From: an uncultured Nitrososphaerales archaeon
Lineage (GTDB): Archaea > Thermoproteota > Nitrososphaeria > Nitrososphaerales > Nitrososphaeraceae
Length of the DNA: 64,000 nucleotides
Direction: 5' to 3'
Assembly (NCBI GenBank): GCA_963713605.1
Contig: CAVQMO010000010.1
Span: forward strand, 96,001-160,000
Of this stretch, positions 10,853 through 50,534 are shown piece by piece; positions within the stretch are counted from its first letter, which is position 1; every line of letters begins with the position of its first letter. Below the pieces are notes generated by a model. That model made no database searches. It saw only the letters and a list, made by a program, of their open reading frames with translations, and had not been told where the DNA came from. The translations under genes and the position numbers were made by a program.

Positions 10853-11535
10853 CTATATGTTCCATACATGAGTTTTTGGAATAGGAATCTCTCTTAAATC
10901 AGATTTGTCTTCAAAAAATATCTAATTCCAGAACGTCAACGACATCCTAAGTGCAGCCCCCTCTTCCCTCTTCCGATGCTATAGTGTTTTTTGACTAGTC
11001 TCCTCATTACTATTTCAATCGATTTGAAACGATGTAGGAATCCAAACCACAAGGAACATGTAGCAAACTTCATCAAGAAATATCCTTCGACAAAAGGAAG
11101 AGTTCCTCAGACTATCATCTTAGTCGACCCAAATGATTGATCTGTTGCATTAGAGAATCCTGATTTGAATACAACGGAATGTTGCTAGGTTTGCGAGCAT
11201 CGCCGAGGACATAACACGGGCTGAAAGCGGCATAGGAATTACGGGTCTAGGACAAGTATGCTTCTGTCAATGGAAGAAAAGGCTTTAGTTAGTGGTAGCG
11301 TCAAAATCAATCAAAAATCTTCTGTATTCATCTTTCATACTATACTAATCTCAAGCCGGAGTAAACACACGTCAGTCTGAGGATTGAAGAGTCTATCGTC
11401 ATAACTTGGGGTTTAGAGCTTTTATCAAGGCTAGAAAATTCGCACATAACACAATGATACGTTGTGTATTCATTTTATGGTCATTCCAACTAAAAGTCTT
11501 TTTGGTAATTTTATAAGATTTACGAAATGAAAAGA

Positions 11536-11883
11536 GGTAGTGCGGCCGAGAATTTGTCCAATTGAAAGGAAAGGACTGGCCAGCCGCTACCCAAGCCATG
11601 CTGATTTACGATATGCTCACATTTCATATTATATTATTATATAATAGACATTATGGAACTTGGTTACTTGTTCTTCCAAATTTGGAAAATCTGATAGGGA
11701 AGTAGACGACTAATAAACGACATGTCGGACGCATTGGTCGCCTACCTCAACTTGAGAGACAGTGAGATTCTTTGAGTGACTTAACGGCCCCAACTGCCGG
11801 CAACTGATACAACATACTATAAAAGCAGATAGAGAAGGACAGCCTACATACAAACATAGGAAGAGGTGTAGCCGTCCTTCTCT
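11536..11883. repeat. Non-coding hairpin-array element, copy A (three hairpin units)
   Basis: About 11536-11800 aligns closely with about 40089-40340; inverted repeats at 11536-11591, 11702-11745 and 11831-11883; 11807-11838 is identical (32/32) to the reverse complement of 50503-50534. Confidence 0.85.
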
Positions 11884-11998
11884 TCACTTATTTGATCAAC
11901 ATCATTAATCAAATTATGCAAAAAGAGTATGGTTATTATAGTATTATATAAAGAAAGAAAATTATAGTTTAGTAGTTGGTATTATTGTTATTTCTCTT

Positions 11999-37728: not shown

Positions 37729-39129
37729 ATGGATAATAATGGAATATATAGCGAGATCAAAAATTTTGCATTGGCGACCGATCTTTATCAAATAATAATG
37801 GCTGCAGCGTATTATTCAAGTCCCTATCATAGAAAAAGGAAAACTATAGGGATTTTTGAAATGTTTCTAAGGAAACTGCCGAAGAACAGATCTTTTATAG
37901 TAGTTGCAGGAGTTGAGCAAGTAGTACAGTATGTCTTGAATTTACGTTATGATGACAACCAAATTGCATACTTACAATCTTTAGAAGTGTTTAAGGATGT
38001 AAATAAGGGATTTTTTGTTTATCTGCGACGATTCAAGTTTAGCGGATCATTATGGTCGGTACCCGAAGGTACAGTATTATTTCCCAATGAACCAATCATG
38101 AGGATAGAAGCTCCGATCATTGAAGCACAGCTATTGGAAACTTGCATTTTATCGATAATTAATTTTCAGAGTTTGATTGCCACTAAAGCAGCTAGAATTG
38201 TATCAACAGCTAGCCACAAACCAATTGTAGAATTTGGCTCAAGAAGAGCACATGGACCACAAGCGGGCGTTCTTGCAGCTAGAGGGGCATTCATCGGTGG
38301 CTGTGTTGGAACTTCCAATACACTTGCTGGAAAGGCCTTTGGCATACCGGTATTTGGTACTATGGCTCATTCTTTTATTTTAAGTCATGAGAATGAACTT
38401 GATGCCCTTAGAGAATTCAACAATATGTTTCCGACTGGATTTCTACTTGTTGACACTTACGATACGTTGAACGCGGTCAATAGACTGCTAAGAGCAGGAA
38501 TTAGACCTTATGGCGTCCGACTTGATAGTGGAGATCTCTGCATGCTCAGTATAGAGACAAGAAGATTACTAGACGATGCAGGATGTAAAGACACAAAAAT
38601 TATGGTTAGCGGAGACCTAAACGAGCATTCCATTTCTAAACTCCTAGCGAATGGCGCTCCGATAGATTGTTTTGGAGTTGGCACGGAGCTGAGCACCTCC
38701 CGGGATAGTCCTACAATGAATGGTATATACAAATTGGTTGGAGTTAAGGTCCGCAATCCTGACAACAATAGTGGTAAATACGAAATATTGTACAAATCAA
38801 AGACTAGCGTGGACAAAGAAACATACCCAGGACCTAAGCAGGTAGCTAGATTCATTAAAGATAATGTTTTAGAAAAGGATTGCTTAATCTTAGAGAACGA
38901 AAAGCCCCCTGACAAATGTATTTTGTTACTAAAAAAGTATCTGGAGGATGGTAACAAAATAATTGAAATGCCGTCGATATCTGAGATACAGAATTACTCT
39001 TCGAAACAACTAGAACTCCTTCCAACAGCCTTGAAATCCCTGGATGAAAAACCAGTTTTATTTCCTGTTGTGCTAAGCCAAATACTAGAGTCACTAGGTT
39101 ATCCACGTGATCCATCAACTTTCAGCTAA
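37729..39129 (+). CDS. pncB: Nicotinate phosphoribosyltransferase
   Basis: TDLYQ, EFGSRRAHG, GTSN, GTMAHS, LVDTYD, VRLDSGD, FGVGT, YKLV. Confidence 0.95.
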   Translation: MDNNGIYSEIKNFALATDLYQIIMAAAYYSSPYHRKRKTIGIFEMFLRKLPKNRSFIVVAGVEQVVQYVLNLRYDDNQIAYLQSLEVFKDVNKGFFVYLRRFKFSGSLWSVPEGTVLFPNEPIMRIEAPIIEAQLLETCILSIINFQSLIATKAARIVSTASHKPIVEFGSRRAHGPQAGVLAARGAFIGGCVGTSNTLAGKAFGIPVFGTMAHSFILSHENELDALREFNNMFPTGFLLVDTYDTLNAVNRLLRAGIRPYGVRLDSGDLCMLSIETRRLLDDAGCKDTKIMVSGDLNEHSISKLLANGAPIDCFGVGTELSTSRDSPTMNGIYKLVGVKVRNPDNNSGKYEILYKSKTSVDKETYPGPKQVARFIKDNVLEKDCLILENEKPPDKCILLLKKYLEDGNKIIEMPSISEIQNYSSKQLELLPTALKSLDEKPVLFPVVLSQILESLGYPRDPSTFS

Positions 39130-39520: not shown

Positions 39521-39718
39521 TTAGGATAACAAAAAGATTGACCTTCTTTCGGGTACTTTCACTCCAACAATTGCGTCCTTACAACTTGGGCAAATCTGAT
39601 AGTAAACGTATATTTGTTTATTGTCCTTGTTCAGGCCTATTGGGAAGTTCCACATTTGAGGGTGAAAACTGATCTTACAACTTGGACATTTCATGGAAGT
39701 ACATATAGCAAATCGCAT
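39521..39718 (-). CDS. Small zinc-ribbon protein (possibly truncated)
   Basis: MKCPSC...ICPSC. Confidence 0.5.
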   Translation of the reverse strand: MRFAICTSMKCPSCKISFHPQMWNFPIGLNKDNKQIYVYYQICPSCKDAIVGVKVPERRSIFLLS

Positions 39719-39776
39719 ATATAATATATGAAGCGCCTATAGTGGCAGTGGCAGTTTAGTTAATAACCAGACAGAA

Positions 39777-40411
39777 GATAGACGACCATTATAGAATAGT
39801 GCCAATAGATATATGGCCGTCTACCCTGGATTTTGCTATCGGTTTGTATTATCGTTATTCAAAACTAAAAGTCTTTTGGTATAATAAAAAGGTAGGACGA
39901 CCATACTTATTGAGACAAGAACATGGCCGCGCTATCTTCGGATATTGCTTTCAGACGGTATAGAATATAATGACCATTCGGGGTAAAAGTTTTTTGGTAT
40001 AATAAAAAGGTAGAACAACCGAGGTTGACCCGATATCTGATTGCCTACCCTTTGCGCGACATATTATAAAAAACAGACAATTAGAAAAGGTAGCGCGCGG
40101 CCGAGAATTTGTCCAATTGAAAGGAAAGGACTGGCCGCCACTACCAAACCATGCCGATTTACGATATGCTCACATTTCATATTATATTATTATATAATAG
40201 GCATTATGGAACTTAGTTACTTGGTCTTCTAAATTTGGAAAATCTGATAAAGTAGACGACCAATAACCGACATGTCAGACGCATTGATCGCCTACTGCCA
40301 GTTGGTTCTTTAAGAGTGATTTAAAGGCCTCAACTGCCCGACAGAGGTATTAAACTACATAATATAAAAAAGATCTAAGGAACCGACCTGCAAAAAAGGT
40401 GGGTTCATCTT
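39777..40411 (-). repeat. Array of about six related hairpin units (putative structured ncRNA array), copy B
   Basis: Inverted repeats at 39777-39825, 39889-39938, 40006-40053, 40089-40145, 40251-40296 and about 40380-40406; the first five share GRTAG/CTAYC-type stem ends; spacer aaaagtYttttggtataataaaaa occurs twice. Confidence 0.75.
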
Positions 40412-40424
40412 GACTGTCACCCAA

Positions 40425-41382
40425 CTATTGGGTGACCAACTGTGCTGGAAGGTTCTCGACTACATAATGCAGATCAGCAGTTTCTCCGGGAGCAACATCA
40501 CAAAGGAATACGAATCCCCCAGTATTGGCGTCTGCTACCTGGCAACCTTGACCTTGGTTAGTAGGGAATACACGCGCAGTTACATAAGTGGTATCTCTAC
40601 CACTGACGGCTGGTTCTGATATTTGAAAGGATACATCCACTCCATCAGGATCCCATCCTACTGCATGTCCGACAGCATCGTCAAACACAGTGACTCTCTT
40701 CATAAAACTCTTGGCCGGTTTTGTAGAGGTTATACTCTTATCTGCAATAGCATTAACGCCTACCTGTTTCATTGTATAAGCCGTAGATTGTGTAGGACCA
40801 TCAATAATAGTATTAGCGGCATTTCTAGTTGTAACTGTTACCTTGTAGTTTGCACTGGGATTTAATGGATTATTGATATTGGAGAATTCTAGCCTTATCT
40901 TTGTACTAGCATGTATATTCACGGCATTAGTAACAGTATATGTGAGCGTTTGACCAGATTTGCTAACTGTACCTACACCTATTCCCTGGGCTTCATTGAA
41001 ACTAGCACTGGAAGGTACCGTGGTGCCTGCTGGAAGAGTTACCTGTATTTTTTTTATCGCACCTGAAGATGCTGTTAGAAATACAACATCATAGAAGGAA
41101 TTAGTATTAACAATGTTATTGGTAGGTCTTGCTGTAACAGAAGAAAGTGCTCCTTGGGTGGTGAAATCCCCCTCTTTTCCATCTTGACCTATTGTTGAAG
41201 GTGCAGACGGAATTGTATTAATGGTAGGAAGGGGTTCTACTGAAGCCGTCGTTGCCAATGCTGAATTAATAATGATGATAGGCGAAGATACAGATCATAA
41301 GTGCAGTAATCAATAGTAACCCAAGTCCTGGCCCTGAGTTAGCCAGTTGCTCGGACAATTTTCCTGACGAGAACAGTTTCAT
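40425..41382 (-). CDS. Secreted/surface Thr-rich beta-strand protein (leader frameshifted)
   Basis: ORF 40425..41258; upstream MKLFSSG...LGLLLITALM leader lies in another frame. Confidence 0.65.
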
Positions 41383-49728: not shown

Positions 49729-50347
49729 AATCAAAAGAACATCGTTTAGTAGATAGCGATCTTGGCCCCAAATTGGATTGTTCAACCGATACTGTTGGTG
49801 TATTAATGGTTCCTACGCAAGACATTCAGATGCATACTACTGATCTTGAGGGTAGAGGTTTCAATATAGACAGTACGCATAATTTCAAGGATCTTAGAGG
49901 AGGTCAGAGTGGAACGGGTGATGAACAAACATTGATTGTATGGACAACTAGTGGCATTGATTTGTCTACCATACCATCAAATCTACAGGAATTCTCTTCG
50001 GACTTCCGTATAGCTAGTAGTTTTTCTAGCTTTTGGCTACACACTCAGATTACGGTCCATTACCTTTAACTTTTTTATAGTTTATCGCAAATTATACGGC
50101 AACGAATATACAGAACGAGAGTTCCAGAAGGTATGCGACCAATACTTCTGTCGTGACTAAATCTTCAAGGTTGTCTTACCATTGTTTAAGGATTGATAGA
50201 TAACCTTGTTCCGGAATATCTTAAGCGTTGCGAGGGAACATGACATATAATACATTTACATGAGAATGTCAGTTGTCAACTTTTACAAGATTAAGTAGAA
50301 ATATACTAAACAGGCAGAGTTAAGTAAAAATATAATTGAAGTAGTCC

Positions 50348-50534
50348 AAGATAGGGATTTGGAAACCTATTCCCGGACCTGCACATATGTTAACCTATAG
50401 GTTATCCTTCCCTATCTTTCACTTTGAAATGCATGTTAGGTATCATATGATTATGAGAAGGGCGCCTACGGCTCTCTGCATTGACAACCAACCGTGGGCA
50501 CACCTTCTCTATCTGCTTTTATAGTATGTTGTAT
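50348..50534 (+). repeat. Hairpin-family element, copy C (two units, opposite orientation to A and B)
   Basis: Hairpins at 50348-50418 (AAGATAG...CTATCTT) and 50455-50509; 50503-50534 is the reverse complement of 11807-11838. Confidence 0.7.

Follow-up and report, generated by a model that had tools for sequence, protein, structure and literature searches.

Tandem hairpin units in an ammonia-oxidising archaeon as members of a genus-wide family of probable small-RNA genes

The intergenic DNA described here most likely holds, as judged from its sequence, five tandem, separately promoted small-RNA genes on the minus strand rather than a single processed array. Its five hairpins belong to an uncatalogued family that runs through one genus of ammonia-oxidising archaea and consists of probable small-RNA genes. 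The reading as five separate genes builds on the folding of the minus strand, a TATA-like motif upstream, a T-run downstream and loops that travel together with their upstream DNA. We think it probable that the units are transcribed, and we give a roughly even chance to the reading as a whole, in which separate hairpin RNAs would regulate in trans by short loop pairing, with the stem and the U tail acting as the part of each RNA that a common protein would bind. For ammonia-oxidising archaea, small regulatory RNAs have, to our knowledge, hardly been described. Sibling RNAs usually share a seed and are few; dozens of members per genome, with a constant stem and exchangeable loops under several promoter classes, would turn this design around and suggest that all share one protein partner. 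As starts, ends and strand are predicted, the family is directly testable.

The array lies in the window (the whole stretch of DNA that was analysed, 64,000 nucleotides) in an intergenic setting, with a nicotinate phosphoribosyltransferase gene (plus strand, ending at 39129) on one side and a 277-aa ORF (41258-40425, minus strand) on the other. The original prediction of five related inverted repeats is borne out, with stems at 39777-39825, 39890-39937, 40009-40049, 40089-40145 and 40251-40296 (units 1 to 5), and so are the periodicity of units 1 to 3, at about 112 and 118 bp, and their common spacer, which occurs twice (39866-39902 and 39984-40020, 92% identical). The minus-strand consensus is a 12-bp stem in which GGTAGRCGRCCA pairs with TGGTCGTCTACC, the 3' arm having one bulged base in some copies. 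The loops had been described as variable, and at 16-28 nt they are indeed dissimilar inside the array, but they are not unique, with every type recurring at other loci. In the same way, the U-tracts expected after each hairpin on the minus strand are clear as T-runs 3' of units 2, 3 and 4 but only short after units 1 and 5. A sixth, more divergent hairpin (40380-40406) had been counted with the others and drops out of the family: its arms are different, it folds better on the plus strand (z -3.80 versus -2.19 on the minus strand), and the family model leaves it unmatched even at E ≤ 1 with filters off. It may terminate transcription of the 277-aa ORF, whose end is at 40425. This ORF (40425-41258, minus strand) is rich in Thr, Ser and Val and looks like a surface protein by composition only, with no match in Pfam. 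On the other side, directly downstream of unit 1, is a small ORF with two CxxC motifs (window 39521-39694, minus strand), for which no Pfam family scored over the cut-off; in comparison with a 68-aa paralogue at C1:566.5-566.7k, its last third appears frame-shifted, and the copy at C12:95.9k is alike in this respect.

Two features add to what had been described, namely a second conserved hairpin in unit 5 (about 40299-40338) and a promoter-like motif 5' of every unit, the order along the array being P1-unit 5, P2-unit 4, P1-unit 3 (at short spacing), P4-unit 2 and P4-unit 1. The predicted promoter of unit 5 is of class P1, a TATA-like TTTTATA with conserved downstream bases (40359-40369, minus strand), and is conserved in 23 aligned loci. 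The predicted RNA of about 94 nt (40247-40340, minus strand) would comprise the 5' hairpin (about 40338-40299), the family stem-loop (40296-40251) and a short U tail, its start being set at a distance of 30 nt, counted from the first T in the TATA-like box. Unit 5 matches the covariance model at E 3.4e-06, being itself a training member, and its loop type is the largest loop family (14 of 128 loops). Unit 4 follows a somewhat diverged copy of a class P2 predicted promoter, a conserved upstream motif plus a TATA-like box (40192-40218, minus strand), and its predicted RNA of about 87 nt (40084-40170, minus strand) consists of a small 5' hairpin, the family stem-loop (40145-40089) and a U tail; near-identical copies stand at C12:96403 and C10:107534. 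The class P1 predicted promoter of unit 3 (40061-40071, minus strand) is 22 nt from the stem, a spacing 7 nt shorter than in the C12 paralogue, so that this copy, with its family stem-loop (40049-40009) and U tail (40003-40049 together, minus strand), may be impaired. Units 2 and 1 both have predicted promoters of class P4, an A-rich element plus a TATA-like box (39984-39995 and 39866-39877, minus strand), which recur 5' of related units, the motif alone being weak; that of unit 2 is one half of the spacer common to the units. On this reading, the spacer is a T-run followed by the promoter of the next unit. The predicted RNA of unit 2, about 77 nt (39883-39959, minus strand), has a leader, the family stem-loop (39937-39890) and a U tail, and that of unit 1, about 70 nt (39772-39841, minus strand), has a leader, the family stem-loop (39825-39777) and a weak U tail. 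Unit 2 is absent between the two spacer repeats of a paralogous array at C12:96k and occurs in a different setting at C12:138k; unit 1 has a paralogue at C4:55094. The window contains a second paralogous cluster (11534-11830, minus strand), in which unit-5-like and unit-4-like copies are accompanied by P1 and P2 motifs. Furthermore, a weak family match at 50127-50182 on the plus strand (E 0.012) is followed by a P2-like motif and, farther on, by a P1 motif without a clear stem, and is probably a decayed cluster.

The strand bias that had been deduced from manual pairing is reproduced by folding. On the minus strand, units 1 to 5 fold with z-scores of -3.45, -2.82, -3.19, -3.49 and -4.88, compared with -1.09, -0.90, -0.77, -3.12 and -1.59 on the plus strand, the minus strand being better in all five cases, and the folded arms of units 1, 2, 3 and 5 contain 10 G-U pairs on the minus strand versus 2 on the plus strand, where the earlier count was 9 versus 1. 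With the strand set by the promoter motif alone, the stems of the family have 67 G-U versus 25 A-C appositions. Orientation by lowest energy gave the strand of the model in no more than 97 of 142 cases, on account of bulges, and orientation by promoter was therefore taken as the independent test. Among the 26 training sequences, two-sided changes occur in 9 of 12 pairs. When 35 distinct sequences of other genomes were aligned to the model as an independent set, 91% of the cells pair and 13 cells are changed on both sides (0 of 500 shuffles), while in two of the five measures of covariation this set did not exceed shuffles (223 and 271 of 500). Rfam gave no matches in the window, the best E in the region being 4.3. 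Selection of the structure on the minus strand, as originally proposed, is therefore upheld as one-sided, covarying and without an Rfam match, and the small-RNA reading describes it best. A selected structure fits RNA or single-stranded DNA, and the G-T bias likewise fits both.

The family is dispersed, with copy numbers of up to dozens per genome in one genus. Extra copies were collected by a fuzzy search for the arms and by BLAST, and a covariance model was built from 26 copies of this genome. It recovers 34 distinct sites in this genome at E ≤ 1, most of which are training members, and together with 15 sites added by hand from BLAST and promoter-anchored inspection the catalogue reaches about 49 sites, none of which lies inside a predicted gene of at least 100 aa. 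All 10 of the same-genus genomes sampled were matched by the model, with 1 to 27 matches each when both strands are counted and 57 candidates scored per genome. Across 90 genomes of other genera there were two weak matches, which we judged spurious, as they look like chance or coding sequence, and an exact pattern found 8 loci in 185,579 species genomes, all titled Nitrososphaeraceae. Three exact patterns had no match in viral contigs, and BLAST against phages and plasmids returned chance-level matches only (best E 0.7 and 2). A loose weight-matrix scan was unable to separate true from chance matches (352 versus 301 in shuffled sequence). The literature consulted, mostly open-access and without supplements, yielded no account of the family; the sRNA tables of cultured relatives may bear on it. 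Elsewhere in the genome, units are missing, swapped or decayed, and they occur singly and in other orders. Contig C1 (1.16 Mb), home of the rRNA operon and of 17 of the 25 tRNAs detected, has none of the 49 catalogued sites, where about 14 would be expected from an even distribution. A possible diverged family copy follows a P1 motif at C1:727865.

The signals that flank the stems were analysed over 142 model matches, of which 132 could be anchored, giving 128 distinct loops. At least four T in the 6 nt after the stem are found in 70 of 125 elements, versus 18 of 120 on the other strand, and TATA-like words peak at -90 to -81 (56 versus 3) and at -50 to -41 (53 versus 9), the peak near -45 being partly sequence within the conserved 5' hairpin. 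Four classes of upstream motif recur, and the P2 pattern is present in 11 of 13 same-genus genomes and in none of 107 other-genus genomes. A stem follows P2 in 26 of 40 and P1 in 34 of 58 cases at loci most of which were picked for holding a stem, compared with 3 of 40 and 5 of 58 when the other side was examined, and with 6 stems in 400 random windows; at loci chosen solely for their P2 motif, 16 of 26 motifs had a detected stem behind them. Of thirteen metagenome stems picked by pattern alone, 11 have a T-run and none has one on the opposite side; a promoter class precedes 7 of them, versus 1 for the opposite side. As bare motifs, P1 (17 versus 17), P3 (31 versus 35) and P4 (128 versus 170) are not commoner in the genome than in shuffled DNA. 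Each copy has promoter and terminator signals of its own at the level of sequence, those of the P4 class being weak. In archaea, transcription starts at about +30 from the TATA box; at one P2 box, the ATG of a 38-aa zinc-finger-like ORF is at +30, which fits a start near this position. P2 also stands 5' of Cys/His micro-ORFs of the 38-aa scale at C4:54442, C12:95867 (minus strand) and locus L125, with the ATG about 28-30 nt past the TATA-like box, and since P2 precedes both stems and micro-ORFs, the RNAs and micro-proteins may share a regulon. In P4-class units at loci L052, L016, L014, L061 and L030, the predicted start is separated from the TATA-like box by an inverted repeat that resembles a repressor site. 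At two further loci (L047 1073-1284 and L063 1113-1324), two units are arranged back to back from a common 90-nt stretch, and their neighbours in several genomes are GNAT-like and amidohydrolase-like ORFs, named by eye.

The loops have a median length of 23 nt and are 61% pyrimidine, and the 128 loops group into 80 or 53 families, depending on the threshold. Out of 41 pairs of close loops, 35 share upstream DNA and 17 downstream DNA, with 21 sharing upstream DNA only and 3 downstream DNA only; loops thus travel with their upstream DNA, which argues that the unit consists of promoter, leader and hairpin and ends after the stem. At one locus common to five species, identity is 85% in the loop, 81% in the adjacent coding part and 56% in the DNA that precedes the TATA-like box. 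Short motifs recur across loop families, among them YYGRCAY (10.2 versus 1.2 expected) and CTTC (32 versus 13), as well as TTCA and GCTT, all counted with one loop per family; anti-Shine-Dalgarno-like CTCC is not enriched in the loops (7.6 versus 9.4 expected). Two small-share sequencing runs were used, and in the RNA run the gap in cover over units 1-4 carries no weight as evidence. One metatranscriptome has a 238-nt contig spanning 40272-40518, which extends into the upstream gene, carries neither ends nor strand and may stem from DNA.

In the mechanism that we propose, each unit would have a TATA-type promoter, a leader of 0-55 nt that sometimes contains its own hairpin, the 12-bp common stem, a family-specific loop and a U-rich end, which amounts to a predicted RNA length of about 50-120 nt. 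The common stem and U tail could be a handle for a protein, e.g. an Lsm ring (the genome has three Lsm genes), and the loops would pair with other RNAs via seeds too short for our target tests. Differing promoter classes might place the siblings under differing signals, and the units may have spread by duplication and by recombination in the common stem and spacer. A further-reaching version, a programmable RNA-guide system of soil archaea in which stem and U tail load an effector protein, dozens of loops are the guides and are exchanged between promoter classes by recombination in the stem, seems to us distinctly unlikely; if true, guide-swapping would rewire which target is hit under which signal.

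The target tests were ungapped, miss seeds of about 10 nt or less, relied on crude gene calls of our own (3796 genes, 55% coding) and compared loops mostly from other genomes with targets from this genome. Pairing antisense to start codons or ribosome-binding sites, an idea prompted by ATG-like text on the plus strand, was unsupported. Start-codon windows were better than internal-ATG controls for 60 of 128 loops and worse for 66, further tests of start-region pairing gave 43 versus 53 of 98 registers and 8.73 versus 9.27, and antisense high scores showed no excess (1296 versus 1347). For rRNA and tRNA, loop pairing scores equal those of shuffles, there was no Rfam match to C/D or H/ACA guides, and their boxes were judged absent by eye; rRNA/tRNA guides were rejected, together with palindromic kissing loops, with no excess (27 versus 31.7 expected). 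Pairing of loops with Cys codons was the same as with out-of-frame sites, and the suggestion of pairing with zinc-finger cysteine codons or TFB genes, of which the genome has about 15 (30 repeat matches), several broken, came down to one post hoc match (z 6.9, TFB at C10:526292) with no general excess. No long genomic loop matches were found outside paralogues in this genome. The unit 2 loop matches the start of a 114-aa gene (C1:700408) over 13 nt, a candidate that was dropped because the gene was not found in genomes G008 and G013, of which G008 has the loop type, and because the start sequence is also present in family-free genera. The best genome-wide match of the unit 4 loop, inside a coding region, was likewise set aside.

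Several other explanations have to be weighed against separate, target-pairing RNAs. The main rival, which we regard as unlikely, is that the small RNAs are transcribed and act through proteins, as decoys or scaffolds to which one or more proteins bind by way of the stem and of short motifs that recur in the loops. The gene-like evidence applies equally to it, short motifs recur across unrelated loop families, and all seven target tests were negative; however, a decoy for one protein would not need as many as 80 families in 128 loops, no candidate protein recurs nearby (the largest cluster of neighbour proteins covers 4 of 89 loci), and no Ro60/TROVE domain was found in any of 14 genus genomes. 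The many copies, altered order, deletions and decayed copies, as well as their restriction to one genus and their absence from C1, could also be explained by selfish or near-neutral promoter-bearing mini-repeats that are copied and shuffled in the chromosome's accessory part, with any RNA incidental or in the service of copying. This is improbable, given the same position and a conserved loop in five species, several distinct conserved promoter classes and the lack of a common mobilising gene nearby; for the miniature mobile hairpins first suggested, a Y1 transposase (PF01797) had no matches in this genome (G000, 87% complete). It is more doubtful still that guide or antitoxin units are cut out of a single long transcript of the minus strand, or that the hairpins are stacked terminators of the upstream gene, both of which had been put forward at the outset. 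The tandem units do share the orientation of the 277-aa ORF and the RNA-library contig runs from this ORF into unit 5, but a promoter-like motif precedes each unit, single copies with the same motifs occur elsewhere, no toxin-like gene or other partner protein recurs in linkage, and there is no credible phage or plasmid match. A terminator stack leaves the upstream motifs and the conservation of loops between species unexplained, and a single processed array is at odds with units that occur singly and reordered. That the array is not a CRISPR, on the other hand, is agreed, since the arms differ, loop types recur across species and no Cas1 was found in this genome (87% complete); nor was a Piwi-domain protein found in the same genome, which is something that precursors of Argonaute guides would call for.

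Sites for recombination or transposition of single-stranded DNA, in which a recombinase shuffles short cassettes, constitute a very improbable alternative. The conserved stem, occasional bulged base, variable tip and G-T bias resemble integron attC sites as portrayed in the relevant part of one source (PMC2727003), and the arms start with GTAG, as in the GTAG-tagged REPs treated in part of another (PMC3733652), the tetranucleotide being at the palindrome foot in the 5' arm of 4 of 5 stems. Both known systems have strand-asymmetric hairpins with variable tips, the units here are reshuffled, and tyrosine recombinases are matched 11 times in the genome, twice by 400-aa genes that are nearly identical. 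Yet only 2 family sites are within 3 kb of a recombinase gene, a fragment match is present at 1 of 89 loci, and no Y1 transposase was found in G000. In place of R and L boxes with a central spacer and constant extrahelical bases there is a continuous 12-bp stem with a bulge in some copies, and no adjacent integron integrase or gene cassettes were found at family loci, where the spacers are without protein genes. Unlike the attC and REP hairpins of these sources (PMC2727003, PMC3733652), moreover, the family has promoter- and terminator-like flanks; its loops are conserved rather than free, and T-runs and upstream motifs are one-sided.

By their defining tests, the family is not CRISPR, REP/RAYT, attC, Y RNA or modification guides. 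Y RNAs and nematode stem-bulge RNAs have their ends paired in a conserved stem, a variable pyrimidine-rich loop and a U tail, and are encoded by tandem genes with their own promoters; this is a likeness of layout only, the hairpin family being without Ro60/TROVE or an Rfam match. By analogy, separate hairpin RNAs of this kind would work most like the bacterial sibling sRNAs of the LhrC type together with archaeal intergenic sRNAs. Several homologous non-coding loci per genome, the mark of sibling sRNAs, are found here. In Listeria monocytogenes, LhrC1-5, Rli22 and Rli33-1 share a UCCC pairing motif, and seven is the highest count of siblings reported in the pertinent part of a 2021 review (PMC8079631). 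As described there, these too are homologous RNA genes on the 100-nt scale, tandem and dispersed, under more than one regulator and with CU-rich single-stranded parts, whereas the archaeal family shares its stem, has differing loops (80 families in 128) and dozens of copies, and is not enriched in CTCC-type motifs (PMC8079631). The multi-hairpin sRNAs SmelA075 and SmelA099 of Rhizobiales, in the part of the source that deals with them, similarly have paralogous hairpins in several copies per genome, but keep an anti-Shine-Dalgarno loop on variable stems, the reverse of the archaeal family (PMC3927594). Closer in lineage are sRNA154 and sRNA41 of Methanosarcina mazei, which the corresponding passages of a review on archaeal sRNAs present as intergenic, 50-500 nt long and with loops proposed to pair with mRNA; transcripts and targets are shown there, and their likeness to the hairpin family by sequence was compared via Rfam only (PMC5867862). 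The term Thaumarchaeota has no occurrences in the main text of this review (PMC5867862).

Two other kinds of hairpin were noticed alongside the family. One has a different stem, with arms that start GAGAAGG, and is often just 5' of P1 units; its sites include 11840-11890 (minus strand) and about 50450-50510 (plus strand) in the window, as well as C3:33.6k, C5:138.6k and C12:252.7k. The other, unrelated to the family, is a long, nearly perfect hairpin present in two copies, at C3:218.5k and C10:77.4k.
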